The notes: generated from the letters alone by a model not told the origin. A DNA stretch of 64,000 nt from a virus (IMGVR_UViG_3300012204_000008:41458-105457); one strand, 5' to 3'. Shown: positions 7,216 through 64,000, numbered from the stretch's first letter. Numbers and translations are program-made.

Positions 7216-7407
7216 ATGCAGAGAACCTTAAGAGAAGACTTGTATTGTTGGAAGCATCATTTATGGTGGGACCAACATACGCTTAGATGGGAGTGTGATG
7301 TAGATATCGCATTTAGATTAGTATTTCAAATGGATGGAGAGAATTTTCTGCCAAGGAGATTTTCTGGGCGGCAAATAGTTGACGTGGAAACAGGGGATTA
7401 TCTATGA
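7216..7407 (+). CDS. Hypothetical protein
   Basis: Short ORF overlapping terL start (ATGA). Confidence 0.5.
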   Translation: MQRTLREDLYCWKHHLWWDQHTLRWECDVDIAFRLVFQMDGENFLPRRFSGRQIVDVETGDYL

Positions 7408-8951
7408 ATTCTCTAGGCGATATGGAAAAAGAAATCGCTGGTAAAGCGTCGGCTAGACTGTTGGAAGAATTAACGAAAGCAAGCGGTCAAAGTACAGCAC
7501 ATGCTGGTTCAATTGAGAAAGAAACTTCCTTCTTGATCTCCCTCATCAAGAAAACTAGCTCAGAAAAAATTGACGAAGAGGAAATCAGTAATGCTATAAT
7601 TCAAGCAGTCCAAAATAGACCAATCAGTATGCTACCTCATCAGATACCACCTAAAGGTGACTGGCTAGGTTGGCTCATGTGCGGTGGGCGCGGCGCGGGC
7701 AAAACCCAGGCTCTTTCGCAATATGTTATTGATCATATCAATGGTCCCGCGTGTCTAACTGGCCCGTCCCCTCACTGGGTAGCAATCATAGCGCCAACAT
7801 TGGGTGACGCAGCAACTTCAATGTTTTACGGGCCCAGCGGTATAAGATCAATGGATCCAACGGCGAAGCTAACCAACGCCGCTGGTGGATTAGTGGTGAA
7901 ATGGCCTAATGAGAGCCAGGCAAAACTCTTTGGCGCTAGAGATCCCGAGGATCAAGAACGTTTACGTTCTGGTGGCAACAGATGTCTTTCGATTCTAGAA
8001 GAGCTAGCTGCGTGGAGATACCTTGAGGATTGTTTCAACCACATGCGTTTCGGACTGCGTGTCGGTCCCAGACCTCGTTGGATCGGTGCAACAACTCCCA
8101 AACCTAGAGACTTAATTAAAAAAATTGTAAAAGGAGAAATGAAAAATGTCGTAGTCACTAAAGCTACGATGTGGGACAATCCTTATCTACCAGAACACAT
8201 TATAGAGTCATTTGAAGAAGAGTACGGCAAGGGACAATTAGGTCGTCAAGAACTTTATGCTGAACTTATTGAGCAAGATGAAAACGCCTTATGGACCCGC
8301 TCCGAGATTGATGCCAATCGTGTAGATGAGGCTCCACAACTACAACGTATAACAGTTGGAGTCGACCCTTCTGGTGGCCGTGGTGAACAAGGAATTATAG
8401 TAGCTGGAAAGAGCATCTCGAGAATTATGGTGAAAGATAGGCCAAAGATAATAGAAGAAGGTTTCGTATTAGATGATAGAACCTGCCGCCTATCACCGAA
8501 TGGTTGGGGACGTCGTGCCGTACAAGCTGCTATAGACTGGGAAGCAGACGATATAGTAGTAGAAACTAACTTCGGTGGGGATATGGCAATGGCTACTATC
8601 TCAGGTGCTGCCGAAGATATGGGAATTTTAATACCAGTGCGAAAAGTAATTGCCTCTAGAGGAAAGCGCCCAAGGGCTGAACCAGTTTCTGCTCTCACCT
8701 CTCGCGGCCATTGGCATCATGTCGGCAGATTTGAAACTCTAGAAGAGCAGATGTGTATTTGGTATCCAGAATTAGATTGGTCACCTGACCGCATGGATGC
8801 GATGGTTTGGGACGCATGGCATCTAAAACTAGTTAGACTCACTGCTCGAGGTAAGGGCCGCTTCCCTGGAAAGGAAATGGGAGAGAAAGTAGATGGGCGA
8901 AGCCGAATGGATAATGTAATTGATCTTAATTCTCGTAGGTCGGTAGGTTAG
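7404..8951 (+). CDS. terL: Terminase large subunit
   Basis: Walker A GGRGAGKT, Walker B ILEELAAW, ATTPK, DNPYL, nuclease VGVDPSG, SPDRMDA. Confidence 0.95.
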   Translation: MNSLGDMEKEIAGKASARLLEELTKASGQSTAHAGSIEKETSFLISLIKKTSSEKIDEEEISNAIIQAVQNRPISMLPHQIPPKGDWLGWLMCGGRGAGKTQALSQYVIDHINGPACLTGPSPHWVAIIAPTLGDAATSMFYGPSGIRSMDPTAKLTNAAGGLVVKWPNESQAKLFGARDPEDQERLRSGGNRCLSILEELAAWRYLEDCFNHMRFGLRVGPRPRWIGATTPKPRDLIKKIVKGEMKNVVVTKATMWDNPYLPEHIIESFEEEYGKGQLGRQELYAELIEQDENALWTRSEIDANRVDEAPQLQRITVGVDPSGGRGEQGIIVAGKSISRIMVKDRPKIIEEGFVLDDRTCRLSPNGWGRRAVQAAIDWEADDIVVETNFGGDMAMATISGAAEDMGILIPVRKVIASRGKRPRAEPVSALTSRGHWHHVGRFETLEEQMCIWYPELDWSPDRMDAMVWDAWHLKLVRLTARGKGRFPGKEMGEKVDGRSRMDNVIDLNSRRSVG

Positions 8952-41050: not shown

Positions 41051-41734
41051 ATGACAACCCCCGGTACTCTTACTGAAACTGACAAGAATTGGATGCTAAC
41101 AGTTCTTGTCCAAGCAATAAGGAGAGAAATGACTAGAATAGTAAGCGTGAATGTCGCTGGTTCTGCCAGTCAATATGTGGTTGGTCCTGGACTTTTCTGG
41201 CACATACCAAGCGGTGCCTCATTGGCCGTATTACGCAAAGTAGGAATTCTTCCGTCAACAACAATTGCACTAACACAGGCAGAATTTGACCTATTGAAAA
41301 GCATGGCAGAAGGTACCAATCCTCTATCCCCTACTACTCCATTCCAATCAGCAGCCGTTAGAACCTATGCTCAAGCGCTTTTCCAAAATCCCACCCTTAC
41401 TGGTCTTTCTAGCCGATATCTACTAGAGCTTCTATGGAGTCGTGTTCTTGGAGAAATCGGTGTTGACTTTGCAGAGGACTCTGCTAAGGCGATGACCGCC
41501 ATTACAGAACTGCAGGCAAGGCCTTTGGCTGATATAGATGAAACTGCACTTGCAACAGCCCTCATATCGGCTGGTCTTGGTGAATTAGATGAAGTAGAGC
41601 TTGCCCGTATCGCGAATGCAGCGGCAAATGAGCTAGACCGTAGAGAGCGGGAACGTCTCGGCCCATCGCCCACTCCTCCAGCCGCCCCAACTCAAACAAT
41701 AGAGACAGAGACTGGAGCAGGAGCTGCCGAATGA
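41051..41734 (+). CDS. Non-catalytic lysin-associated protein
   Basis: No catalytic motif; DIDETALATAL and IANAAANEL..R resemble actinophage lysin C-termini. Confidence 0.5.
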   Translation: MTTPGTLTETDKNWMLTVLVQAIRREMTRIVSVNVAGSASQYVVGPGLFWHIPSGASLAVLRKVGILPSTTIALTQAEFDLLKSMAEGTNPLSPTTPFQSAAVRTYAQALFQNPTLTGLSSRYLLELLWSRVLGEIGVDFAEDSAKAMTAITELQARPLADIDETALATALISAGLGELDEVELARIANAAANELDRRERERLGPSPTPPAAPTQTIETETGAGAAE

Positions 41735-42744
41735 GAGTACTTATAACAGGCGGGGCCGGTTTCGCAGGTCACCACCTAGTTGAGCATCTCCTTACTACAA
41801 CTGACTGGGAAATTGTTGTCCTTGATTCACTAACATACGCCGGTAAGATTGATAGGTTAGTTGACTGTGAGGGATACGATCCAACACGAGTTTCTGTGAT
41901 ATGGCATGATCTTCGCGCACCATTAGACGTCGGTCTTGACAGATCACTTGGTGAAATAACCGCTGTACTACATCTCGCTTCGGCTAGCCATGTAGATAGA
42001 TCGATAACAGAACCAGTTTATTTCATTCAAAATAACGTTTTCGCAACTTTGAACCTGCTAGAATGGGCAAGGACCAGACCAGAACTCACTCACTTCATTC
42101 AGGTTAGTACCGATGAGATATACGGACCGTCACCGGAAGGAGAAGCCCATAGCGAATGGGACCCTCATCTACCATCAAATCCGTACTCAGCTAGTAAAGC
42201 GTGTCAAGAGGATATAACGATTGCATGGTGGCGTACATTCGGTGTTCCTGTCGTTATAACTAATACGATGAACATGTTTGGGCAACGCCAATTCCCTGAA
42301 AAATTCGTCCCAATGGCTATCAAGAAAATTCTTAACGATGAACCAGTTCCTATCCATGCTAAGTTTGATCGTCGAGCTGATACTTGGATTTCAAGTTCAC
42401 GACACTGGCTGCATGCAAGAAATCACGCGGACGCTTTGAAGTGGATCTTAGAGAATGAAAGAGCAGCCATGTTTCCTTATTGCGAACAACCAGATCGCTG
42501 GAATATTGTTGGAGAAGAACATACTGCGGGCGAAATAGCTCAATTAATTGCAACAGTACTTGGGCGAGAAGGTGTAGGTGAGTTTGTCGACTACCACACA
42601 TTACGTCCCGGCCACGACCACAGGTACGCTTTAGACGGCTCAAAACTCCGTGACGCCGGTTGGGAACCCCCAGTTGATTTCCATAAGTCATTGGAGCAAA
42701 CTGTTCAATGGACAGCAAGATTTCCACAATGGTTAGAGTCTTGA
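41731..42744 (+). CDS. rmlB: dTDP-glucose 4,6-dehydratase
   Basis: TGGAGFAG, LTYAG, SHVDRSI, STDEIYG, PYSASK, RPGHDHRY. Confidence 0.92.
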   Translation: MRVLITGGAGFAGHHLVEHLLTTTDWEIVVLDSLTYAGKIDRLVDCEGYDPTRVSVIWHDLRAPLDVGLDRSLGEITAVLHLASASHVDRSITEPVYFIQNNVFATLNLLEWARTRPELTHFIQVSTDEIYGPSPEGEAHSEWDPHLPSNPYSASKACQEDITIAWWRTFGVPVVITNTMNMFGQRQFPEKFVPMAIKKILNDEPVPIHAKFDRRADTWISSSRHWLHARNHADALKWILENERAAMFPYCEQPDRWNIVGEEHTAGEIAQLIATVLGREGVGEFVDYHTLRPGHDHRYALDGSKLRDAGWEPPVDFHKSLEQTVQWTARFPQWLES

Positions 42745-42756
42745 TTGGAGTAGCAA

Positions 42757-43398
42757 ATGAAACGTTTCTTTGCGGTAGCTATAATAGTTACGACCGCATT
42801 GATAATTGGAAGCATGACACCCGCTCAAGCAACACACGCTTGGGGGAATTATCATTGGGCAAGATCCTCCAATCCATTCGTTGTGTCATTGGTAGATCAG
42901 ACCACATATAATGCAGAGTTAATTCAGGCATCAAGTAATTGGTCGCAATCTGCCATACTCGACACGGCAATCGTCTCTTCGTGTAGTAAGCGCTGTGTGT
43001 CTGTTCAGAACGGTTCATATGGACTTACTGGCTGGATAGGACTTGCCACGATTTTTATTGATCCACAAACGAGCCATATCTATAGCGGAACCGTCAAGTT
43101 GAATGACACCTATCTGGTTACCCGCTCTGCTTCAGAACAATGGCCTATATATGTTATGTGCCAAGAGATAGGGCATACACTTGGATTAGACCACCAGGAC
43201 ACGGGTTTCAGAAATTCTAATCTTGGTACCTGCATGGACTATACGAATAATCCGGCACGCGATGACGGAGTTGGTAATAATCTGCGACCTAACGCACATG
43301 ACTATGAAGAGCTTGGTATAATTTATCAGCATCTTGATCGTCGTGGCCGAGGGCATGGCCAGCCGGCGAGCATCACATATATTATCCCTGCTCCATAG
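42757..43398 (+). CDS. Secreted metzincin-like zinc metalloprotease homolog
   Basis: Signal peptide; QEIGHTLGLDH and Met-turn TCMDY. Confidence 0.65.
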   Translation: MKRFFAVAIIVTTALIIGSMTPAQATHAWGNYHWARSSNPFVVSLVDQTTYNAELIQASSNWSQSAILDTAIVSSCSKRCVSVQNGSYGLTGWIGLATIFIDPQTSHIYSGTVKLNDTYLVTRSASEQWPIYVMCQEIGHTLGLDHQDTGFRNSNLGTCMDYTNNPARDDGVGNNLRPNAHDYEELGIIYQHLDRRGRGHGQPASITYIIPAP

Positions 43399-43407
43399 AG
43401 TCATAGT

Positions 43408-44052
43408 ATGAAAAATTATGCGATAATCCTAACCCACAATAGACCAACCCTGCTCTATCAGTGCGTACAATCAATCATTGATCAAGTTGACATGGTCATC
43501 ATAGTAGACAACGCAAGCAATCCATCCGTGAATATTCTTCAAAGCGGTATAGAAGTTATTCGCGATCCTGAGCAACCTCCCAATATCGCAAAGATGTGGA
43601 ATCAGCAAATTAATAGAATAGCAGAGCAAAACTCGCTCGAAGAAATGTGGAACATAGCTTTACTGTGTGATGATACAATAATTCCACCGTATTGGTATAT
43701 CAAGGTCTCTACAGCAATGAGAGACGTTGGAGTTTCAGCGGCCTCAACGCACAGTTATGCACCAATTAGTTCTTCATATCGACTAACTTCCTTAACCAAT
43801 GGCGCAGATAGAATGTGTCCTTGGGCATTTATGATAGCCGGTGAAAGCAGACTGCGTGCTGATGAATCATTGCATTGGTGGTATTGTGATACAGACTTGG
43901 ACTGGCAAGCCCGCGTTAATGGAGGAACATTAATCGTTGACGGACCAATTGTTCCGAATGAGAGAATTGGTGAATACACGCAAAGGCCAGAGCTTAGCCT
44001 CCAGGCTAAAGAAGATGAAAGAACCTTCTACGCAAAGTGGTTCGGAAAGTGA
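43408..44052 (+). CDS. Glycosyltransferase family 2
   Basis: IILTHNRP, IIVDNAS, LCDD, WYCDTD. Confidence 0.8.
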   Translation: MKNYAIILTHNRPTLLYQCVQSIIDQVDMVIIVDNASNPSVNILQSGIEVIRDPEQPPNIAKMWNQQINRIAEQNSLEEMWNIALLCDDTIIPPYWYIKVSTAMRDVGVSAASTHSYAPISSSYRLTSLTNGADRMCPWAFMIAGESRLRADESLHWWYCDTDLDWQARVNGGTLIVDGPIVPNERIGEYTQRPELSLQAKEDERTFYAKWFGK

Positions 44053-44678
44053 GAAGCGACATCAATGTTGTCTACGGCTGCTGCACTGGTGATTGGGAAA
44101 AATTCCAGCGCAATGTAATTTCGCGAGTTCAAAACCGTCGGATAATCGCCACAAGTGGACACACTGGAATTGTTGCACCTTACAACATGATTCTTGATGC
44201 AGTAGTTGATTGGAATCTAGACGCACTGATTTTACTCCACGATGATTTAGAACTAACTGATCCTGACGGTGAAGAAAAACTCATAAATGCACTAGCTGAT
44301 CCCCAAGTTGCACTTGCTGGTGTAGCAGGAGGAGGGGGAGGATCCCTATACTGGTGGGATCACTCACCAATCGGGCACCAATTAACAGACGTTACAAATA
44401 TCGATTTTGGTACACGGGAGGGAGAAGTAACCCTCGTTGAAGGTAGTATTATGGCCTTATCTCCGTGGTTAATTCGCAATCTCCGGTTTGACAGTATCTT
44501 TACTGGCTTTCATGGATATGATGAAATAGGTATGCAAATTCGTTCCCATGGCAAGAAATCCGTGGTAGTAGACGTTGATACACATCATCATAATCCAACG
44601 GGTTACTCCTCACCAGAGAGTGCAGAAATGTGCCGTCTAGCCAATCAACTCTATAAGGAAAAATGGGGATTACCGTGA
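44049..44678 (+). CDS. StrF-like glycosyltransferase
   Basis: YN...LLHDD...GVAG...FD..F.GFHGYD. Confidence 0.7.
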   Translation: MRSDINVVYGCCTGDWEKFQRNVISRVQNRRIIATSGHTGIVAPYNMILDAVVDWNLDALILLHDDLELTDPDGEEKLINALADPQVALAGVAGGGGGSLYWWDHSPIGHQLTDVTNIDFGTREGEVTLVEGSIMALSPWLIRNLRFDSIFTGFHGYDEIGMQIRSHGKKSVVVDVDTHHHNPTGYSSPESAEMCRLANQLYKEKWGLP

Positions 44679-45310
44679 CAGATGTGCCATGGACGAAATT
44701 CACTTATTCCCTTTCAGACTTCCCATTTCCTGATATGGTTGCCACTTCTATCTATACAGAAGACTTGACTGCACTTTCTTTAAAAAAGACTAAAAACACA
44801 TGGCAAACAGATCAGCAGAGCCCTTGGCATGATTTGTTTTATCAAAAGTTTAATTCATGGCAAGAAACATACATTCAATTCATACGAGAGGAGATAAGTC
44901 CATTAATAGGTGAGCCATACTACTATCAAAAAGTACCAACATTTCGTATCCATTTACCAGATAATATTGCAGTAGGTGAATTTCATACGGATGCGATGTA
45001 TCACCATCCATTAGGAGAAGAGTCATTCTGGCTACCATTGACAGAAGCTTATGACACATGTAGTTTATGGATTGAGGACGACGAGAAAAATTTTCGCTCT
45101 GTAAAGGCTTCTCCTGGAGAAGTGATTCGATTTTCAGCAGTAACACGATTGCACGGTAATAAAATCAATATTGAAGGACGTTCTCGTGTCAGCTTTGATT
45201 TTAGATGTTTGCCAGTGAGACTTCTTCCGAAAGAAAAGGGAAAAACCACCATGCATACAAAGTTGAAATTTTCTCCAGGCGGTTATTATTCATCAGAGGT
45301 TATAGGATGA
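44675..45310 (+). CDS. StrG-like Fe(II)/2-oxoglutarate dioxygenase-fold protein
   Basis: YQKVPTFRIHLP...EFHTD (HxD), WLPLT, LHGN, RVSFDFR. Confidence 0.7.
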   Translation: MTDVPWTKFTYSLSDFPFPDMVATSIYTEDLTALSLKKTKNTWQTDQQSPWHDLFYQKFNSWQETYIQFIREEISPLIGEPYYYQKVPTFRIHLPDNIAVGEFHTDAMYHHPLGEESFWLPLTEAYDTCSLWIEDDEKNFRSVKASPGEVIRFSAVTRLHGNKINIEGRSRVSFDFRCLPVRLLPKEKGKTTMHTKLKFSPGGYYSSEVIG

Positions 45311-45840
45311 AACTTAATCTTGGAAGCGGTGATAGGTATGAAGATGGCTGGATTAACGTAGATCATGGATATATAGGAAAGAAAGATCAACGAGTTAATT
45401 TAGCAGGGCCATTACCATGGGAAAAAGAAAGCGTGTCGTACGTATATGCCGGTCACTTACTAGAGCACTTAACGAAAAAGGAATGTCTAGAGCTCCTGAC
45501 CAACTTATTACCACTGATGATAAACGGTGGAAAATTAATGATCGTGGGACCAGACATAGAAAAAGCAAGAGAGATGATGGAAGCTGGGACATTTGACTAT
45601 ACCTATCATTCTCTAAATTCGTTACTCTATGGCGGACATAGATGGGAGGGAGACGATCATAAGTGGGAGACGAATGAGAAAGAGATAACTGAGCTCTTGA
45701 CTATAGCTGGATGGAGTGAGATTCAAAGTATAGGAATAAGTAATGTGGGTGTAGAATGGCCTGTAGCAGATAGAGCTCCGCAATGGCAGTATGCCATTCT
45801 AGCTAGAAAGGGAAAGGAGAAAGAATTAGATGAAACGTGA
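45307..45840 (+). CDS. Class I SAM-dependent methyltransferase
   Basis: KLNLGSG...GWINVD...HLLEHL...GG.L.I.GPD. Confidence 0.8.
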   Translation: MKLNLGSGDRYEDGWINVDHGYIGKKDQRVNLAGPLPWEKESVSYVYAGHLLEHLTKKECLELLTNLLPLMINGGKLMIVGPDIEKAREMMEAGTFDYTYHSLNSLLYGGHRWEGDDHKWETNEKEITELLTIAGWSEIQSIGISNVGVEWPVADRAPQWQYAILARKGKEKELDET

Positions 45841-47053
45841 AAACTGTGGCGCTTGCGGCTCTGATAAGCTAGATATCTTCTTAGATCTTGGCAATTCTCC
45901 GCTTGCTGACGCTTATACTGCAACAGCCTATGAAGAAAGTGAACTATTTCCTTTACAGCTAGCAGTTTGTACTGATTGTCTATTAGTACAACTAGTGGAA
46001 GTTGTAGCCCCAGAGATCCTGTTTGGCAGAGGATACTCTTTTTACTCCTCTGCCTCCCCTCCACTTTCTGCCTATAATGCTCTTTACGCATGGAAAATAT
46101 TGAGCACATACAAAATCCAAGCCAAACAACTCACCGTAGAGATTGGCTGCAATGATGGAGATCTATTAAGTCACTTCGCGAAAAGTAACTGCAAGACACT
46201 CGGAATTGATCCTGCAGAAGGACCGGCTAAGGTGGCTAGAGAGAGGGGGCTTGAAGTCCTTGTTAGTTCTTTTGATGTTAATATGGCAAGAGAGATCAAG
46301 GCGGAGCGGGGTCCAGTCGGTGTTATCATTGCAAATCATGTACTAGCTCACGTTGAAAACGTTTCGGAAGTACTAGAGGGAATTAAGCTCCTGCTCGCAA
46401 GGAATGGAGTAGCTTATATAGAGGTCCAGTATCTACCCGATTTATTGGTCAATAACTCCTTTGATATGGTTTATCACGAGCATCGTAACTTTTTCACCCT
46501 GCATAGTTTAGAAAATGCAGCAAAGCAATGGGGATTACGAATCCTTTCTGCTAAGTTAACCAATCGTCAAGCTGGTTCACTTAGAGTAGTGTTGACGCAT
46601 ACTAATAATTTCTTAGCTTCCTCCCCCCTTTATAAAAAAGAGGATCTCCTCCGATCTGAAGAATGGCTACAATCCCCAAATGCCTACATCGGCCTTCAAG
46701 GCCGAGCCGATCGAATCAGAGAAAGACTTCTCGACTTGGTCTATAATGCAGACAGGCCAATGATTGGATACGGTGCTCCAGCCAAAGCTACTACATTATT
46801 GAATTTCTGTGGAATTAATTTCAGCAGCTTCGAGAGAGTCATAGATGCCACTCCGGCAAAACAAGGGCGCTTTATCCCAGGCACGGGAATACAAATCGTT
46901 TCACCTGAAAATGGAAAAAGAGAAATGGAAAAAGCGAGGACGATACTATTACTTTCATGGAATTATGCGTCCCAAATCATGCAAAATCATATCACACATG
47001 CAGTAAGTGGAGGAAAATGGATACTACCTTTCCCGGCCCCAATGGTTTTCTAA
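45830..47053 (+). CDS. NDP-hexose C-methyltransferase
   Basis: CxxC...LDLG.SPLAD, C..C.LVQL, EIGCNDG, NHVLAHV, YHEH, YGAPAK, KQG.FIPG, LSWNY. Confidence 0.88.
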   Translation: MKRENCGACGSDKLDIFLDLGNSPLADAYTATAYEESELFPLQLAVCTDCLLVQLVEVVAPEILFGRGYSFYSSASPPLSAYNALYAWKILSTYKIQAKQLTVEIGCNDGDLLSHFAKSNCKTLGIDPAEGPAKVARERGLEVLVSSFDVNMAREIKAERGPVGVIIANHVLAHVENVSEVLEGIKLLLARNGVAYIEVQYLPDLLVNNSFDMVYHEHRNFFTLHSLENAAKQWGLRILSAKLTNRQAGSLRVVLTHTNNFLASSPLYKKEDLLRSEEWLQSPNAYIGLQGRADRIRERLLDLVYNADRPMIGYGAPAKATTLLNFCGINFSSFERVIDATPAKQGRFIPGTGIQIVSPENGKREMEKARTILLLSWNYASQIMQNHITHAVSGGKWILPFPAPMVF

Positions 47054-56550: not shown

Positions 56551-58257
56551 ATGGATCCTTTCTTTTTGGTTACTCTTCTTATTACTTCCGGAATCCTTCT
56601 CTCTCTCATTCGAGGGGCTCCTCTCTTCAACTCCGTGGGGTGGGAGGTGGGAATGGGGAGAATAGTAGGGGGTAGCGAGCCGGGGATACGAGGGTTTCTG
56701 CGTTTTCTCGTTCTCTCTCTTGTTTTCTCTTTCCGTCGGGCTCTCTCTCCTTCGCGGCGGTTGCGGCTTACCCGCGCTAGGTTTCTCGCCTCGCATGATC
56801 TTAGGGTTTGGGAACGTCGGGTCTCTGGACATAAGGTACTGGCGGGATCTAGACTCAGAATTCGTAGTCGCGGCATCGGGCCAACTGGATGGATGGGGTC
56901 AGTAACTCTTAAGTCTTCCTCCTCTTCTTCTCGTTCGTCCTTCTCCGGAGCGGCCGCGCGACCCCATATGATACAAACTCTTTCCGAGGATCTAGACGCC
57001 TTGTTCCTTTGTCGCCGCGGCACGTTTAGAGTGTCCTGTGGCTTCCGAGGGGATCAGTACTACGTCCGCCGCGTTATATCGGATCCACTAGTGAATCCTC
57101 CTCCTTGGGCTGGACCTGCGGGGAGCGGGATCCTACGACGAGCTCCTCTCGGGATCACCGTAGACGGTGAGAAGTTTACGATTCCCTTAAACGTCAACAT
57201 GCTCATCTCTGGATATACTGGAACCGGTAAATCTAATATCCTCCAGATTCTTGTTGGGGAACTAGTAGCGTCTCGGGATGTGGATCCCTGGCTAATTGAC
57301 CTTAAAGGAGGGATAGAACTTAAGGGATGGAGTCAAAGCGTATCTCAGTTCGTGTCGACGGTCTCTGGGGCCTCTGATCTAATGAAGGGACTTCTCCTGG
57401 AGATTGAGCATCGGCGGGCTGGTATGCGAGGTCGTATCTGGATCCCGTCTGCTACGTCTCCTGATATCGTACTCGTGATCGATGAAGTAGCAGAGATTCG
57501 AGCGAAAAGCGATGTCGCTCTTCTCCGTACCATCGTCTGCACCGGCCGTGCGACTGGCGTTCACGTGATCCTTGCCACCCAATATCCCATTGTAGATGTC
57601 GTGGATAACATCGTCCGCGCTAACCTAGAAAATCTTATCTCTACTCGGGTCCAGCGACCAGAGCATTCAGAGGTCGCATTCGGCCGGGGAGCGGTTTCCT
57701 CGGGCTGGGACACTTCTTCTTTTGAACACAGGCCAGGTCTATTTTATGCAAAGGTTCCTGGGAGCAACGCTCCTATTCGCTGTCGTTCTTTCTACGTCTC
57801 AGATTCGGACATTGACTATTGGAGTGCAAAATGGATCCGCGAAAGCCACGAGACCGAGACGAATGGGTCGCCTTCATCTTCCACGTCTTCCTCTGGTTTC
57901 TTTTCATCACCCTCCTCTACTGGACCCTCTCAAGAATCCTCTGACTCCTCTTCTCGGGTTTCTAAGCTCTTCGCTCAGGCTCGCGGGACCTCATTTTCTG
58001 GAGAGGCTTCCTCATTTCGTAGGCGGGCTCTTCAGATTACTGCTTCACGAGAAGAACTCCTTACAGATTCGGTTCTCGTTTCTCTTATTTCTTCTTATTC
58101 TTCGGGGGTCGGGACCTCAGAACTTCTCTCGATTATCGTTCCTTCTTACTCCTCTCTCTCTTCTCGCTCACTACAGCGTAGACTCTCATCTCTCGCTCGG
58201 TCAGATAGGATTCTTAAGACCGGTTCCGGCGTAACCGCACGGTGGGCGGCCCAGTAA
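56551..58257 (+). CDS. FtsK/SpoIIIE-family (TraB-like) DNA translocase; alternative start at 56653
   Basis: Walker A GYTGTGKS, IDLKGG.EL..W, Walker B LVIDE, GRA.GVH.ILATQ.P; Ser-rich linker; HTH-like C-terminus. Confidence 0.8.
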   Translation: MDPFFLVTLLITSGILLSLIRGAPLFNSVGWEVGMGRIVGGSEPGIRGFLRFLVLSLVFSFRRALSPSRRLRLTRARFLASHDLRVWERRVSGHKVLAGSRLRIRSRGIGPTGWMGSVTLKSSSSSSRSSFSGAAARPHMIQTLSEDLDALFLCRRGTFRVSCGFRGDQYYVRRVISDPLVNPPPWAGPAGSGILRRAPLGITVDGEKFTIPLNVNMLISGYTGTGKSNILQILVGELVASRDVDPWLIDLKGGIELKGWSQSVSQFVSTVSGASDLMKGLLLEIEHRRAGMRGRIWIPSATSPDIVLVIDEVAEIRAKSDVALLRTIVCTGRATGVHVILATQYPIVDVVDNIVRANLENLISTRVQRPEHSEVAFGRGAVSSGWDTSSFEHRPGLFYAKVPGSNAPIRCRSFYVSDSDIDYWSAKWIRESHETETNGSPSSSTSSSGFFSSPSSTGPSQESSDSSSRVSKLFAQARGTSFSGEASSFRRRALQITASREELLTDSVLVSLISSYSSGVGTSELLSIIVPSYSSLSSRSLQRRLSSLARSDRILKTGSGVTARWAAQ

Positions 58258-58262
58258 CTGAC

Positions 58263-58319
58263 TGGCGCGCACCCTAGTTAGTTTGTGGCGCGCACCTGGC
58301 GTACGCCATGGCGCTCACC
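58263..58319 (+). repeat. Three 11-bp direct repeats TGGCGC(G/T)CACC at exact 23-bp spacing
   Basis: Copies start at 58263, 58286, 58309; palindrome TGGCGTACGCCA at 58297-58308. Confidence 0.8.
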
Positions 58320-58902
58320 GACCCTACCTGGGCGCCTACTGGTATGGCATTCTGCGGCCAGCAGATCGGCAAACCCATGATCATTCCTGGGGATCACCAG
58401 AGTGGAAATAATTTTGCGGGCATAGGATCAATTCGCAATGGCCAGGCCCAAATCCGTATTTTGAGAAAATAATTTACAGTACCGAGACTATCCCCAGGCC
58501 AGCCCAGGCAAAAACGGGGCAAAACAAACGGTAACCTGGCACAGTGGGGCATACTAGCCCACAACCCTAAGCCTAACGTTTACGGTTAGCCATGCTAGGT
58601 AACGGTATGGTAACGGTATAAGTTACTACCACGTACCCCTTGTGTACCTGCCCGCTACCTGGCAGCGTGGGCCTTGCACCACCCGGCACGGCCTAGCGGC
58701 CAGCCCGGTGCGTGCCAGGCACCACATGGTAACTGCATAGCGGCACACACAGCATGCCACCCTACGCACGCGGGCACACATGCCCGTAGCGGTGGGCCAT
58801 GCTGGCACACACAGCAATACGGCTGCGCACGTAGTGTGCGTGCGCAGCGTACGTACAGCACGTTGCATAGGGCACGTGCTGCCACACAAAGGGGTATATA
58901 CC

Positions 58903-59496
58903 ATGCACGCAGTAACAAAGTACACGCTGGCAGTGCCAGCAGGTACCACAGCCAGCACGCTGCTAGCGGCGCTGGCCAATGGCACAGGCAAGGTGTACCG
59001 GCTGCGTACCACAGCCGGTAACACGTTGCGCCACATGCCGTACCTGGCCCCGGGTACACCGGCCCACGCCACCGCTGCCGCCATTACGGCGGGCCGCGCG
59101 GCAGGCCACACCTACACCGTACTGGGCGCGCAGCACAGCCTAAGCACGGCGGCTGCCCAGCGCGCGGTTACCAACCTGTGGCTTACCAAGGCCATTGCCA
59201 GCCAGCCGCACAGTGTGCTGGCAAGCTGGCTGCAAGCCGGTGGGTTTACCCACACAAACGCCAGCGTGCCCACCGCGGCGCCCGTGTTTGTGGCGGCCAC
59301 CAACGTGGGGGTTGCCAAACCCAAGGCCACACCGCCCGTTGCCACCGCACCCGTGCCTGTGCCCAACCCGCAGCCCCCGCTATGGGTGCCCGGCACCCCG
59401 GCCCCATGGGTGCCCGGTAGCCAGCGCCAGCCGTTTGCCACCGCTAGCCCTGCCAGCAAGGCAACACAGCCCAGCAAGGCAAAGGCCACCAAGTAG
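58903..59496 (+). CDS. 197-aa basic Ala/Thr/Pro-rich protein with no Asp or Glu
   Basis: AAAGGGG RBS 8 nt before ATG; GC3-rich codons; followed by a 13-bp-stem hairpin. Confidence 0.7.
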   Translation: MHAVTKYTLAVPAGTTASTLLAALANGTGKVYRLRTTAGNTLRHMPYLAPGTPAHATAAAITAGRAAGHTYTVLGAQHSLSTAAAQRAVTNLWLTKAIASQPHSVLASWLQAGGFTHTNASVPTAAPVFVAATNVGVAKPKATPPVATAPVPVPNPQPPLWVPGTPAPWVPGSQRQPFATASPASKATQPSKAKATK

Positions 59497-59518
59497 CCAC
59501 CTGCCCCTACCCAGTAAC

Positions 59519-59554
59519 CCAGGGCACCCCGGCCACCACGGCGGGGTGCCCTGG
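59519..59554 (+). terminator. GC-rich hairpin after the Asp/Glu-free gene (no U-tract)
   Basis: CCAGGGCACCCCG / CGGGGTGCCCTGG. Confidence 0.5.
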
Positions 59555-59799
59555 CCTAACACCAAACTACGGGCTTGCGTGCGTACGCGGCATGGCCGCC
59601 CGTACTAGTGGTTTACACCGGTTACAGGCCACACAAAACCGCCGGTAGTTGCCAGGCACGCCTAGCTGGCAGCGCAACCCCAAGCAAGGCAATGGCCGGG
59701 CGCAAACACCGCCCCGGTTACAGCGCCACCGGGCAGCCCTAACCCCACAACACGGGTACAAGGGCTGCCCGGCCCCAAACCCCACAACAGGAGCACCTA

Positions 59800-59931
59800 A
59801 TGATAAAGGTTGTGTATTTCCGCAACGGCAAGGCACGAACCTTGGAATTCGCTACCGCGGCTGAAGCCAAGGCGGCAGTGGAATTCCTACGCGCCCGCGC
59901 CTATCGCGTGCTTCCCTACAAGATCGTCTAG
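59800..59931 (+). CDS. 43-aa hypothetical protein MIKVVYFRNGKARTLEFATAAEAKAAVEFLRARAYRVLPYKIV
   Basis: AGGAG RBS (the first GA after the island); followed by a terminator. Confidence 0.65.
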   Translation: MIKVVYFRNGKARTLEFATAAEAKAAVEFLRARAYRVLPYKIV

Positions 59932-59936
59932 GAAAC

Positions 59937-59964
59937 AGCCCCGCTCCGGCGGGGCTTTTTTCTT
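59937..59964 (+). terminator. Rho-independent terminator
   Basis: AGCCCCGC-TCCG-GCGGGGCT followed by a T-tract. Confidence 0.85.
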
Positions 59965-60006
59965 GCACACGTAATTGAATCCCATGAATCTATAGCCATC
60001 TGCTCT

Positions 60007-60025
60007 TTGAATTCATGGAACTCTA
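60007..60025 (+). repeat. 19-bp repeat TTGAATTCATGGAACTCTA, copy 1
   Basis: Identical to 60617-60635. Confidence 0.85.
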
Positions 60026-60069
60026 TGAATGTACGTAAAATTTGATAAATGTGGAGCCGGCCGAACCTA

Positions 60070-60109
60070 CCCTCAGGCCATTTCAAATACTAGGCTTGGC
60101 CGTAGGCCA
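60070..60109 (+). promoter_or_regulatory. Repeated promoter-like motif with TAGGCT -10 and GTA-loop hairpin, copy 1
   Basis: 22/27 identity to 60726-60752; TGGCC-GTA-GGCCA. Confidence 0.55.
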
Positions 60110-60246
60110 GCGCACCAAGTGAAATGGGGTAGGCACCATGGGTAAGCAGGTACTTATTCACCGCCCCAAGGGTCCAAGGAGCACCCCACAGCCGTTGGAC
60201 CTCACGACCCCGTCCGGTAAGCCCACCAAGAACTAAGGAGCTCCCA

Positions 60247-60402
60247 ATGAGCTACAGCTACGCAATTCTCGTGCAATCCAGGGTGAACGCCTACGGGCCG
60301 TTGGCCGTGGACATGCAGGACTGGAAGCAGCGCGCCTGGGTGCTCTGCTTGCTGGACCCGCAGCGCCGTACCCGCATTCTCTGGGACCTCGCCAGCAGCT
60401 AG
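60247..60402 (+). CDS. 51-aa hypothetical protein
   Basis: AAGGAGCTCCCAATG initiation region; read manually. Confidence 0.6.
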   Translation: MSYSYAILVQSRVNAYGPLAVDMQDWKQRAWVLCLLDPQRRTRILWDLASS

Positions 60403-60410
60403 GAGCCGCA

Positions 60411-60506
60411 ATGACCAAGCAGGAACATCTCCACCTTGCCGCCTACTGGACCGCGCTAGGGATTCACTGGCGCGCTCGCGCCCATTTCCGAGCTGCTAGT
60501 TCTTAG
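60411..60506 (+). CDS. 31-aa hypothetical protein
   Basis: AGGAG RBS overlapping the previous stop. Confidence 0.5.
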   Translation: MTKQEHLHLAAYWTALGIHWRARAHFRAASS

Positions 60507-60616
60507 AAACCCAAGCGACCAACGAAAAGAAATAGCCTCGCGCGCGTCATGCGTGTGTGCTCAGTATACGCACCTGCTCGCGCAATTTATACTGTCACCG
60601 AAAAAGACCGCCGCAA

Positions 60617-60635
60617 TTGAATTCATGGAACTCTA
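60617..60635 (+). repeat. 19-bp repeat TTGAATTCATGGAACTCTA, copy 2
   Basis: Identical to 60007-60025. Confidence 0.85.
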
Positions 60636-60725
60636 AAGCGACCGATAAAAAGAAGCCGAAAAGAATTCAAGCGACCGCGTTAAAGATCCACTTATAACTT
60701 GACCCAAATAGATTTTCAAAACCGC

Positions 60726-60767
60726 CCCTCAAGCCTTTTCCATTGCTAGGCTGCCCGTAGGGCAGCC
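60726..60767 (+). promoter_or_regulatory. Repeated promoter-like motif with extended -10 TGCTAGGCT and GTA-loop hairpin, copy 2
   Basis: GGCTGCCC-GTA-GGGCAGCC; similar to 60070-60109. Confidence 0.55.
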
Positions 60768-60816
60768 CGCCCACCGGGGGCGGGGCACAGCCCGCCAGCC
60801 AAAGGGGCCAGCGTCA

Positions 60817-61011
60817 ATGCGAAACATTACCCTTGCCGCCGTAATCAAGTTGCAGGAGCAAGCTGCGGCTGACCGGCCCAGGCCGCCCGGTTGGTGGTTG
60901 GATAAGCAGGCCGAGCTCAAGATAACCGGCGGGTACAACACCAAGAAGTCCAACCAATGCCACACCTGTTTTCAACAGCGCAGCGTAAACGGCGCCTGCG
61001 GTTGCGAATAA
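60817..61011 (+). CDS. Small protein with C-terminal zinc-finger-like motif
   Basis: AAAGGGG RBS; CHTCFQQRSVNGACGC. Confidence 0.65.
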   Translation: MRNITLAAVIKLQEQAAADRPRPPGWWLDKQAELKITGGYNTKKSNQCHTCFQQRSVNGACGCE

Positions 61012-61087
61012 GGAGCAAAAGAATCGCTTTATTCAGCCACCAGGACCTCTTCAAGTTAGAATACATCTATCCAGACGAGGAGTAGAA

Positions 61088-61420
61088 ATGCAACTCACGT
61101 ACAAGCAGAAATGGCAGCTAGGCTATGACGACGGTCTAGCTGGAAACGAACGCAAGACCAATGATGCCGTGTACCTCAGAGGATATGCGGCTGGCAAGAA
61201 AAACCGGAGGGGGATAGAAATGGAACACAACCACCCGATCAAGGACAAATTCGGCGGCACCATCATCATGGAATTTGGTTGCCCGCTCTGTGACGAGTAC
61301 GAGGCGATCAGAGTTTACAACTGGATCCAAAGTGAATTGGACTCGCCGATCCTCTACATGGAAGGTCCTCTCCAAGCCTTTGTCCAACTTGTCCACGAAA
61401 GATGCGATCAAGAGAGGTAG
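61088..61420 (+). CDS. Hypothetical protein
   Basis: GAGGAG RBS; GYDDG...YLRGYAAG motif. Confidence 0.6.
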   Translation: MQLTYKQKWQLGYDDGLAGNERKTNDAVYLRGYAAGKKNRRGIEMEHNHPIKDKFGGTIIMEFGCPLCDEYEAIRVYNWIQSELDSPILYMEGPLQAFVQLVHERCDQER

Positions 61421-61422
61421 AA

Positions 61423-61590
61423 ATGAAGGCTACAATCAACGTCTCTGAAGAGAACAGGGACAAAGCCGCAGCCGTTTTCTTACGCGCCTTTGAGGCAGGT
61501 AGGCTTGGCACCATCGGCGACTGCTCCGAGTACGGTTTCTTGTATGAGGTCTTTCAGGCACTAGACGTTAAGTGGGAAGAGGAGATCTAA
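61423..61590 (+). CDS. Hypothetical protein
   Basis: GAGG RBS. Confidence 0.55.
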   Translation: MKATINVSEENRDKAAAVFLRAFEAGRLGTIGDCSEYGFLYEVFQALDVKWEEEI

Positions 61591-61772
61591 TGAAATACGA
61601 GATCAGGAACGTACCGGAAGACCTCCCGGATGGAAAGTATCCATCACGAATCCTCAAGCCGTTTCTCTCCGAAGATGGGGAACTGATTTTGCCCGTTGAA
61701 TACGCCCCGGACAAGCGAGTTGAGGATTCCGCTATTCCCATCATCGTGAACCGAGGGCAAGTAGAAAAGTAG
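61590..61772 (+). CDS. Hypothetical protein
   Basis: GAGGAG RBS, TAATG overlap. Confidence 0.55.
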   Translation: MKYEIRNVPEDLPDGKYPSRILKPFLSEDGELILPVEYAPDKRVEDSAIPIIVNRGQVEK

Positions 61773-61814
61773 TCCCAATCTCGAGCTAGTTTCGTTCTCA
61801 AAAAGGAGCTCCCA

Positions 61815-62030
61815 ATGCTTACCACAATAATCGAGATCGGCGACCAGGTCGTTTTCCAGACCAACACGAACCGCTTCCTGGTCAAGATCACAAGTGTTTC
61901 AACTGCTTCGGAACGCCCCGGCTTCGCGGGTCAAGTACAGAATGGCCCGGAGAAAGGGGAATGGATTTGGGGCTACAACGACCAGGTCGTAAGGATCTAC
62001 AAGGGATACAGCAAGTTTTTCCGGCGCTGA
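61815..62030 (+). CDS. Hypothetical protein (SH3-like barrel possible)
   Basis: AAGGAGCTCCCAATG initiation region; EIGDQV.F. Confidence 0.6.
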   Translation: MLTTIIEIGDQVVFQTNTNRFLVKITSVSTASERPGFAGQVQNGPEKGEWIWGYNDQVVRIYKGYSKFFRR

Positions 62031-62043
62031 AAGGACCGATCCA

Positions 62044-62187
62044 ATGTACTACAGCTATCAAACAGATGAGGAAGTTCTTACCCTCATTGAGGCCTCTAGG
62101 CTACGAATCTCCTTGCGGGAGAACGGGATGAGGAATTCCGAGGCTGAGTACGCCGCAGTTGACGAAGGAGAAAAGATCTTCCTATGA
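62044..62187 (+). CDS. 47-aa hypothetical protein
   Basis: AAGGA RBS; read manually; ATGA overlap with next gene. Confidence 0.5.
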   Translation: MYYSYQTDEEVLTLIEASRLRISLRENGMRNSEAEYAAVDEGEKIFL

Positions 62188-62309
62188 GCCAAAGTCCGTT
62201 GATTTTTGCCCTCATAATCCTTGTAGCACTTGTTGATATCGCACTTTTCCTGTACGCTTCCAAGCTGAGTCTATGGGAAGGGAGCCAAGAAGGGGAGGAG
62301 GAGGCATGA
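62184..62309 (+). CDS. 41-aa single-TM membrane protein
   Basis: MSQSPLIFALIILVALVDIALFLY...; ATGA overlaps on both sides. Confidence 0.55.
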   Translation: MSQSPLIFALIILVALVDIALFLYASKLSLWEGSQEGEEEA

Positions 62310-62542
62310 GCCAGAGGGGAAAACTCAGGGTAGTTCACAAGGAGAATTACTGGGACATCGTCATGGATCCGGAGTTTGAACCGAATATAGAGAACGGGTA
62401 TACGACGGTAATTCAGCCGATGTTTTCGTTGAAAGACGACTTCGGCTCATGGGAAGAAGAGCTACCTAATCACTGGCTAAACAGTAGCGAAACTTTTTTC
62501 TCTTACAAAAGCGATCATAAAGAAGACGACTTTTTCCTGTAA
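62306..62542 (+). CDS. Hypothetical acidic protein
   Basis: GGAGGAGG RBS. Confidence 0.55.
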   Translation: MSQRGKLRVVHKENYWDIVMDPEFEPNIENGYTTVIQPMFSLKDDFGSWEEELPNHWLNSSETFFSYKSDHKEDDFFL

Positions 62543-62752
62543 AAAACGAATTCCAATTAGATCCAATAAGAGTTCCATGATCATGATCAGACGCGCGAAT
62601 GAATCCGATCAACCGAAAAATCATGACTCCTATGAATAAAAATAAACAGAAAACCTGAATTCATGAATATCCGCATCAAAAAACTCAATAAAATTTCCGC
62701 AATTCACCACAAATGCCATGCCACATATCCCCCATACATCCACATTTCCAAG

Positions 62753-62847
62753 TTGTACCCAAACCGAAGTTGTTGGTTTACGTGAAAGCCCTATAGGGCC
62801 CCCTAAAGCAACTATCACGTAAACCAAGAACCTCGGTTTGGGTGCAA
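62753..62847. repeat. Imperfect 33-bp inverted repeat
   Basis: 62753-62785 matches the reverse complement of 62815-62847 at 30/33 positions. Confidence 0.85.
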
Positions 62848-62866
62848 GGAATTTTGTAACAATATG

Positions 62867-62890
62867 ACCACCGATTTTCGGTGGTATACT
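62867..62890 (+). promoter_or_regulatory. Palindrome ACCACCGA-TTT-TCGGTGGT overlapping extended -10 TGGTATACT
   Basis: Read directly; 40 nt upstream of ATG 62930. Confidence 0.5.
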
Positions 62891-62929
62891 AGCTACAACA
62901 ACTACAGAAAGTACCCAAAAGAGAGGAAA

Positions 62930-64000
62930 ATGAACTTGCGGCCAACGAAACAAGAATGGAAAAAGAAAAGGGACCAAGAGCTCCAGAATTTCGTAAAGAA
63001 ATACATAGAGCAAGAGCTAGAGCGAGACGAGCCGTTCCTCTCAAATAACGCCCTAGAAATCCACCAACAAGCCGAATACGCCTACCTCCCGACACCTTCC
63101 AAATTACTTTATGCCGACTTTAAAGAATGGGCGAAGACACAAATCAACCCAGAGATCTCCCCCATGCTCCGCATGGAAATTGACACAATCCACCTCTCCA
63201 TCCTCGCAGACGCTTTCCTAACAGCCTTCTCCGACATCGTCGGATATGAAACATGCGAACCGATAAATTCAGTATCAAAACGAAGGGAGATAACTTCTGT
63301 AAGGGCTTGGCCGGGTGTGATTTTCAAAACGAACGGACCAAACACCCACAGGAATCTCAAAAGAGCCCGCCATCCAACTGAAACCGGATGGGAGAGGGGC
63401 AAGAGAAGAGAGCTGGCACAACAGCGAGCCCAAAAAGAAGGCCGAAGAAACAGAAGCAAGGATCTCTTTCCACTCCACCCCTCAAAAGAAGAGATACTAA
63501 CAGTAGTAAAGTCTTTCTTTCAAGAAAGAGTAGAGTTCGGAGAAGGCGAAATTCTAGCCGACGAGCTCTATTTCTCGATAAAAGAATTCGCGAGACAAAA
63601 CCCAGAAAAAAAGAGTCAAGAAATCGCCAAAGCGCTAGAAAGCTGGAAGGTAATGGGCGCAGCCGTAAAAGAGGTGATCTTGACTCTCCATAATATCCCA
63701 GAGGAACTCCAAAGAGCGGACCCAGATCCTTTCAACAATAAAAAGCGTTCCGCCTCTCTAATTCACCTCCCATACAAAGAGAAACGATATTTCCCTCCCG
63801 ATTACGAAGGAGACAAGAAACGTAACAGAGTAAGACGAAGAGGAAAAGAAGACACAAGTGTAGCTACCAACAGAACGGGTAGACAATGGGCAAAAGCAAT
63901 GGAGTCTGAAGCACAAAGAAGAGAGAGAAAAAGAAAGGAAAAACTACAGAAACCAGACCCAAGTTTCGATCTCTCTAGAGTTTATGTTTCAGGAACGAAA
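62930..64000 (+). CDS. Large basic protein running off the window end (absent from the ORF track); possible tandem winged-helix DNA-binding domains
   Basis: GAGAGG RBS; frame read manually with no stop through 64000 (MNLRPTKQEWKKKRDQELQNFVKKYIE...). Confidence 0.7.
   Translation, partial: MNLRPTKQEWKKKRDQELQNFVKKYIEQELERDEPFLSNNALEIHQQAEYAYLPTPSKLLYADFKEWAKTQINPEISPMLRMEIDTIHLSILADAFLTAFSDIVGYETCEPINSVSKRREITSVRAWPGVIFKTNGPNTHRNLKRARHPTETGWERGKRRELAQQRAQKEGRRNRSKDLFPLHPSKEEILTVVKSFFQERVEFGEGEILADELYFSIKEFARQNPEKKSQEIAKALESWKVMGAAVKEVILTLHNIPEELQRADPDPFNNKKRSASLIHLPYKEKRYFPPDYEGDKKRNRVRRRGKEDTSVATNRTGRQWAKAMESEAQRRERKRKEKLQKPDPSFDLSRVYVSGTK

Follow-up and report, generated by a model that had tools for sequence, protein, structure and literature searches.

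A phage gene region of 1.3 kb without a single GA or TC dinucleotide: possible exemption from DNA modification

Results

The subject of this analysis is a stretch of 64,000 nucleotides (hereafter, the window; IMGVR_UViG_3300012204_000008:41458-105457), the final 64 kb of a contig of 105,457 bp from an uncultured phage of ~105 kb, and, within it, an island at positions 58493-59791 from which the dinucleotide GA and its complement TC are both missing. The phage is a tailed one, with all genes on one strand, and the limits of the island coincide with gene borders: it begins 20 nucleotides past the stop codon of an open reading frame (ORF) for 54 amino acids (58308-58472, plus strand), whose GA/TC content is normal, and extends to the ribosome-binding site of the next ORF. 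Three parts can be distinguished within the island, all on the plus strand: a 5' non-coding leader of 410 bp (58493-58902), a gene for a protein of 197 amino acids (ORF197, 58903-59496), and a 3' non-coding part, a chain of hairpins of 294 bp (59497-59790).

A recount on the plus strand placed the last TC at 58491 and the next GA at 59791, which yields a gap of 1300 bp, exactly as had been claimed in an initial reading made from the DNA alone (hereafter, the sequence-only reading). Since both GA and TC are missing from the plus strand, neither strand carries either of them. Given the base composition of the island itself (283 A, 481 C, 368 G and 167 T), ~80 GA and 62 TC, ~142 sites altogether, would be expected, in line with the earlier estimate of ~150, and none was found. 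Taken singly, all three parts are likewise empty, the expected numbers being 27.5 GA and 20.7 TC for the 5' flank, 34.4 and 27.8 for the ORF, and 17.7 and 12.4 for the 3' flank; hence the constraint indeed spans, as had been proposed, non-coding DNA, a ribosome-binding site, a whole gene and hairpins. Nor is this a case of low complexity, another point on which the recount agrees with the sequence-only reading: the remaining nine base-pair steps all occur in the island, and no other 3-mer or 4-mer is strikingly absent. The G+C content is 65% in the island versus 47% in the window, and the AT and GC skews shift across the island.

The purge is local rather than genome-wide. The whole window, which had been described as rich in GA/TC outside the island, holds 8373 such sites, 1.06 times the expected number; the next-longest gaps in it measure 75, 55 and 50 bp, the other intergenic regions have a normal GA/TC content, and when the rest of the window was simulated with Markov models, the maximum gap was ~56 bp. 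The evenness of GA/TC spacing along the genome overlaps that of control phages. The heptamer CGGTWAC is found in five copies in the island and in 21 copies in the whole window.

Since a sequence without GA cannot contain the stop codon TGA, ORFs of ~200 codons are no rarity in it: 7% of GA/TC-free simulations reached this length. ORF197 is a real gene, as judged from its codon periodicity and from a profile match. The three-base periodicity (chi-square 49.6, p = 6e-9; the maximum in 1000 simulations was 26.9) ends at the borders of the ORF, and records of the identical protein exist at NCBI, JGI/IMG, Logan and ENA. An exhaustive phmmer search retrieved 15 metagenomic homologues (113-292 amino acids, most of them shorter than 155), which align with residues ~10-112 at E-values between 5e-6 and 5e-4; a hidden Markov model built from these 15 sequences without the query recovered ORF197 at an E-value of 6.2e-22, as the sole match among the 705 ORFs of the window. 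The HTH_23 model is matched by 13 of the 16 aligned sequences, and models of sigma-70 region 4 (Sigma70_r4_2) or of resolvase helix-turn-helix domains by 8 of the 16; ORF197 itself has no match in Pfam. Against PHROGs, in a word-indexed protein search and in a protein atlas, ORF197 found only itself, and a tblastn search of phages and plasmids with one of its homologues (P0015) found none.

The AlphaFold model built with the alignment is confident for residues 1-118, with a predicted local distance difference test score (pLDDT) above 90 for residues 11-110, and consists of a beta/alpha unit followed by a helical domain, and the last 80 residues form a disordered C-terminal tail with a high content of Pro, Ala and Lys. 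Residues 49-103 superpose on the helix-turn-helix domains of sigma region 4, LuxR and DeoR with Z-scores of 6-7.8, which are middling values, and with a root-mean-square deviation of 2-2.5 Å over ~50 residues; a Foldseek search against the PDB gave no significant match. ORF197 thus belongs to a metagenome-only helix-turn-helix family and is predicted to be a DNA-binding protein of the sigma-region-4/LuxR-like kind.

The comparison with this family reveals what the purge has cost the protein. The homologues carry ~12 Asp and Glu residues in the core, and many of them have acidic tails as well; ORF197 has none in the core and none in the whole protein. A Glu that is invariant in all 15 homologues corresponds to Ala99 of ORF197, and positions occupied by Asp or Glu in 14 and 13 of the 15 correspond to Gln77 and Ala59, respectively. 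The replacements at the acidic positions are diverse (A, V, G, N, K, H, Q, P and S), and the synonymous choice is skewed, too, with Ser encoded by AGY only, Phe by TTT and Ile by ATT. A track of context-specific hypermutation, left by a deaminase or by editing, that turned TC into TT or GA into GG would enrich AA/TT or CC/GG and would give uniform replacements; neither is seen (AA/TT stands at 1.14 and CC/GG at 1.05, both near normal), which excludes hypermutation. Judged from the alignment and the base steps, then, the recoding is due to selection on DNA (or on the transcript) that overrode the protein, and not to mutational bias.

Outside the island, the same step stands out in a different manner. 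When 6-bp palindromes were compared with the expectations of a maximal-order Markov model, those without GA/TC proved to be avoided (482 observed versus ~651 expected, 0.73), whereas the 16 palindromes with GA/TC occur at expectation (237 versus 241, 0.97). The contrast is significant (Mann-Whitney p = 0.0015), GA/TC is the sole step of the ten to show such an effect, and all of the 16 most avoided palindromes lack it. The contrast persists in both halves of the window and at Markov orders 2-4, and is absent in the coliphage CAjan and in two unrelated loci. Inside the island, the 16 palindromes that are most avoided elsewhere were observed 4 times versus 12.1 expected (P = 0.007); since the island shares the avoidance, it is native to this phage and has evolved under the same pressure. 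The sparing of GA/TC palindromes lends indirect support to the notion that GA/TC sites are protected across the genome. The most avoided palindromes include CAGCTG, TGGCCA, GTGCAC, GCCGGC, AAGCTT and CTGCAG, and may reflect the restriction enzymes of the host. In the control Pseudomonas phage M6 (positions 1-50000), which has hypermodified thymine, palindromes with CA/TG, AT or TA are far less avoided than the others (for CA/TG, 0.79 versus 0.35, p = 0.0007), a pattern that could be the sequence trace of the modification context of that phage.

The non-coding parts of the island are structured. The left junction (58473-58492) is A/T-rich and contains the last GA dinucleotides (58484 and 58486) ahead of the last TC; the hexamer TACAGT at 58475-58480 matches the actinobacterial -10 pattern TANNNT and might be part of a promoter. 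The leader lacks codon periodicity (chi-square 4.8, p = 0.56) and folds better than all of 100 shuffled versions (z = -3.0). It contains tandem 11-mers (GGTAACGGTAT) at 58596-58620, in two and a half copies spaced by one helical turn, with a third, related copy 119 bp downstream of them at 58726-58739. Close to its end, 8 nucleotides ahead of the ATG, a GA-free Shine-Dalgarno sequence, AAAGGGG (58888-58894), takes the place of AGGAG/GGAG, which the window uses ~40-90 times elsewhere; ribosome-binding sites of the GGGG type also precede the ATG codons at 60138 and 60817. The 3' part folds even more markedly (z = -4.4), with perfect stems of 13 bp (59519-59554) and 12 bp (59729-59772) that are not followed by a U tract. 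At the right junction (59791-59963), the first GA lies within the GGAG ribosome-binding site of an ORF for 43 amino acids (59800-59931) with a normal GA/TC content; a canonical intrinsic terminator (59937-59956, then a run of T) comes after this ORF. In the island region, neither the Rfam scan nor the tRNA scan gave a match above threshold.

Further downstream, two promoter-like motifs precede the next genes on the plus strand. P1 (CCCTCARGCC..CTAGGCT), a repeated motif, is followed by a hairpin and by a leader with one GA (60070-60137, up to the ATG at 60138); P2 has a similar arrangement of motif, hairpin and leader (60726-60816, ahead of the ATG at 60817), and lacks GA and TC between the TC at 60739 and that at 60814. 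Between 60750 and 60899, 3 GA are found versus 9.3 expected and 2 TC versus 6.5, i.e. the depletion is symmetric. The depletion of the P1 leader is statistically weak (3.6 GA expected), and that of the P1 and P2 leaders is suggestive but, with ~4 GA expected, weak by itself. Both P1 and P2 have a conserved TC upstream of their -10 elements. Directly after P1, a possible ORF for 32 amino acids (60138-60236) is preceded by AATGGGG, again a ribosome-binding site of the GGGG type; it is too short for the ORF list of this region, which starts at 40 amino acids. A 19-nucleotide word (TTGAATTCATGGAACTCTA) is found upstream of both motifs, in the regions 59974-60028 and 60615-60637, with a degenerate copy at 59974; it is a candidate operator or activator site and may serve the early region.

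As for the genome at large, the genes identified include those for DnaE, a ThyX homologue with an intein, the large terminase (7404-8951, ~51 kb from the island), the portal, the tape measure protein and an FtsK/SpoIIIE-like ATPase; also encoded are an SDR, an NDP-sugar pathway (RmlB/C-methyltransferase) and five glycosyltransferase-like genes. Identical proteins are encoded on a contig of 106,033 bp, and a glycosyltransferase variant comes from run SRR6266540. The ThyX homologue (3330-5339) is interrupted by an intein that bears helix-turn-helix domains of its own. The portal is ~30% identical to those of Mycobacterium, Gordonia and Microbacterium phages, and the -10-like TAGGCT elements would fit an actinobacterial host. 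A 2OG-Fe(II) oxygenase (44663-45310), part of a sugar cluster at 41731-47053, has more than 130 homologues, some of them named StrG or phytanoyl-CoA dioxygenase, among which proteins of Rhodococcus, Micromonospora and Streptomyces hint at the same group of hosts. The FtsK/SpoIIIE-like ORF (56551-58257) lies ~230 bp upstream of the island, with the ORF for 54 amino acids in between; its length differs by gene caller (568 versus 388 amino acids), the match to the ATPase family covers only residues ~190-460, and its N- and C-terminal parts are very rich in Ser, Arg and Leu and rich in TC (up to 38 TC per 200 nucleotides, at 58001-58200).

Relatives of this phage proved hard to come by. Near-identical DNA was sought among GenBank phages, and a 33-nucleotide word of the island in IMG/VR, in both cases with no match; queries with the portal protein and with ORF197 found no relatives in IMG/VR and in GTDB genomes; and the search through the FtsK-like neighbour yielded only loci with ~34% identity, all of them without islands.

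Discussion

What could have emptied 1.3 kb of a single base-pair step? GA/TC is one of the ten steps of the duplex, and it is missing in both orientations, from coding and non-coding DNA alike, and the partial depletion at 60750-60899 is symmetric as well, so that an agent reading double-stranded DNA is the most economical explanation. The best reading, to which we would assign a likelihood somewhat short of even, is that the island, as a transcription unit, is spared the DNA modification that the phage itself makes in the GA/TC context, which is what the sequence-only reading had in mind when it spoke of a modification-exempt region. This would imply that such a modification exists, that a base of the GA/TC step carries it, and that it bears on transcription. 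The phage would mark its own DNA at GA/TC sites after replication; as the enzyme would act wherever the motif occurs, the motif would have to be removed from any stretch that is to stay unmodified, and only in the form of such a motif-free stretch could a defined part of the genome remain ordinary DNA. The island would then be a self-contained unit whose product, a DNA-binding protein with a helix-turn-helix, is probably an early regulator. On the incoming, fully marked genome, this unit could be read by unaided host RNA polymerase with host factors, and the product of ORF197 would subsequently act on the marked genome, helping to express the rest, including, perhaps, the genes behind P1 and P2 with their conserved TC. 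A more specific version, which we regard as rather doubtful, holds that the mark is bulky and, being present at every GA/TC, blocks unaided host RNA polymerase, so that the first regulator had to be written in a motif-free "clear window". The palindrome sparing is indirect evidence for this exemption from modification, and the ThyX homologue with its intein, the SDR, the NDP-sugar pathway and the five glycosyltransferase-like genes may be counted in its favor.

Several observations weigh against exemption from modification. The modifying enzyme called for by the earlier proposal did not turn up in the part covered: among the window ORFs scanned, no GA/TC-specific enzyme was identified, and TET/JBP dioxygenases, DpdA and the preQ0 genes (FolE, QueC, QueD, QueE), a kinase for 5-hydroxymethyluracil (hmU) and DNA methyltransferases were all sought there with none recognised, including no Pfam or PHROG match of the DpdA/preQ0 type. 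The 2OG oxygenase was considered as a thymine dioxygenase and rejected, being StrG/phytanoyl-CoA-dioxygenase-like rather than TET/JBP-like, and thus an enzyme of sugar tailoring; the glycosyltransferases and the sugar genes may just as well serve to decorate the virion or the cell surface. A scan with the sigma-70 consensus gave no promoter for the island. GenBank phages, IMG/VR, JGI metagenomes and GTDB genomes offered no close relative in which the conservation of the purge could be followed. At Markov order 1 the contrast between palindromes weakens (p = 0.17), and no 4-mer in positions 1-58200 and 60001-64000 is avoided more strongly than TCGA, in which both strands have the step (112 observed versus 175 expected, z = -6.3); the enrichment of GATC in the same positions (283 versus 246, z = +3.1) is a further caveat to the palindrome signal. 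Finally, CAjan, the GA-modified phage to which the sequence-only reading had appealed, shows neither an island (its longest gap is 81 bp) nor palindrome sparing, which leaves the palindrome test without a positive control; nor does GA-context modification by itself produce an island, and the analogy does not predict one.

The main rival explanation, which we hold to be on the whole unlikely, is that the sequence is immune to an enzyme that attacks GA/TC, i.e. cuts, deaminates or ADP-ribosylates it, as part of a host defence or of the phage's own host shutoff; the unit would then encode a product that is still needed while the attacking activity is on. This would agree well with a purge that covers the whole unit, with the leader, the ribosome-binding site and the 3' hairpins, as if each transcript or each copy of the gene were the target, and enzymes of such specificity do exist, namely, CmdT, which acts on GA in mRNA, and DarT2, which acts on TCTC in single-stranded DNA. 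Deaminases specific for TC exist as well, and T4 endonuclease IV acts on TC in single-stranded DNA. The difficulty is that, if the target were RNA, either GA or UC would be lost, but not both to an equal degree (62 TC expected, none found), unless there were two agents or both strands were transcribed, while an attacker of DNA would also hit the 8,373 other sites in the window unless these were protected, and with such protection the modification model returns. Neither a GA/TC-directed toxin nor a nuclease of this kind was identified in the window. The variant put forward with the sequence-only reading, a first-injected segment that evades a GA/TC-directed defence, fits poorly with the position of the island: the large terminase gene being ~51 kb away, the island probably lies mid-genome and not at the end that enters first.

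Could the island instead be an element that acts in cis (as an origin of replication, a site for packaging or a binding platform for the adjacent FtsK-like translocase, for instance), in which the gene is merely embedded and whose DNA would need to be kept unmodified or to possess particular duplex properties? The tandem 11-mers at 58596-58620, the many hairpins, the change of AT/GC skew and the FtsK/SpoIIIE-like gene ~230 bp upstream would suit such an element, but sites of this kind rarely need 1.3 kb, there would be no reason to recode an entire protein and to sacrifice conserved residues, no iteron array or DnaA-box-like pattern is seen, and the terminase genes are ~51 kb away. We consider this improbable; likewise, nothing points to the origin or terminus mentioned in the sequence-only reading. 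A horizontally acquired cassette (moron), whose GA/TC-free state would be the legacy of another phage, might seem to be indicated by the G+C content of 65% as against 47%, by the seat between two genes and by a terminator-like hairpin of its own, but the island shows the same palindrome avoidance as the genome and, like the early genes next to it, a ribosome-binding site of the GGGG type; moreover, 1.3 kb without continuing selection would soon regain GA/TC, and the question would only be shifted to another phage, which makes this origin quite improbable. As to an error of sequencing or assembly, the reading frame, the codon periodicity and the profile match are intact, the protein is known from four sources and the palindrome avoidance is that of the genome; together with the near-normal frequencies of AA/TT and CC/GG and the uneven replacements at the acidic positions, which speak against a hypermutation track, this renders an artefact of either sort extremely improbable.

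Returning to exemption from modification, it is instructive to compare the island with known systems. Avoidance of restriction sites in phages resembles it in that a short word is missing far beyond chance, and this genome, too, avoids 6-bp palindromes; here, however, the word is a 2-bp step, normal genome-wide and absolutely purged from one unit of 1.3 kb, and conserved protein residues have been removed with it. The phage thymine dioxygenase 5mYOX97, which prefers to oxidise thymine in the NTC context, belongs to a clade that co-occurs with glycosyltransferases (PMC13229309). Its dinucleotide specificity would match TC/GA, it comes from a phage, and it is linked to glycosyltransferases, several genes for which are present here; unlike the case described there, the window ORFs scanned include no recognisable 5mYOX/TET-JBP gene, and the paper describes no motif-free islands (PMC13229309). 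In CAjan, DpdA places preQ0 in DNA at GA and GGC (PMC7544227), a phage base modification in the GA context that is alike in this respect and, as discussed above, is accompanied by neither an island nor palindrome sparing. CmdT of the CmdTAC defence ADP-ribosylates the adenine of GA in mRNA and thereby blocks translation, according to the account of PMC11618068 quoted in PMC12945103. Escape from an enzyme with this dinucleotide specificity would need a wholly GA-free mRNA, and there is indeed no GA in the sense transcript of the leader, the ORF and the 3' part; CmdT acts on RNA, however, and would leave the equally complete loss of TC unexplained. There is also precedent for the state of the template deciding which DNA is transcribed, as it would be here: in T4, Alc prevents cytosine DNA from being transcribed, and SPO1 has factors that depend on hmU. 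In these two phages, the whole genome is modified, and we know of no motif-free window in them.

Conclusions

Phage motif avoidance is well known, and normally it is a statistical, genome-wide trace of restriction; here, one unit has been purged and conserved acidic residues have been given up in the process. In the papers searched, we came across no example in which a dinucleotide had been purged locally and absolutely from what appears to be a transcription unit, with the loss of conserved residues. An island of this kind may be regarded as a pointer, read from sequence only, to a dinucleotide-specific enzyme, be it a modifier or an attacker, of a class that is otherwise hard to find, and step-free islands provide a simple computational signature for which every phage genome can be screened. 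For the biology of such phages, the island would offer a handle on the transcription of hypermodified DNA at the start of infection. If, as we deem possible but rather unlikely, a bulky mark at GA/TC indeed keeps unaided host RNA polymerase from the rest of the genome, the absence of a dinucleotide would amount to a cis-encoded epigenetic switch that orders gene expression.

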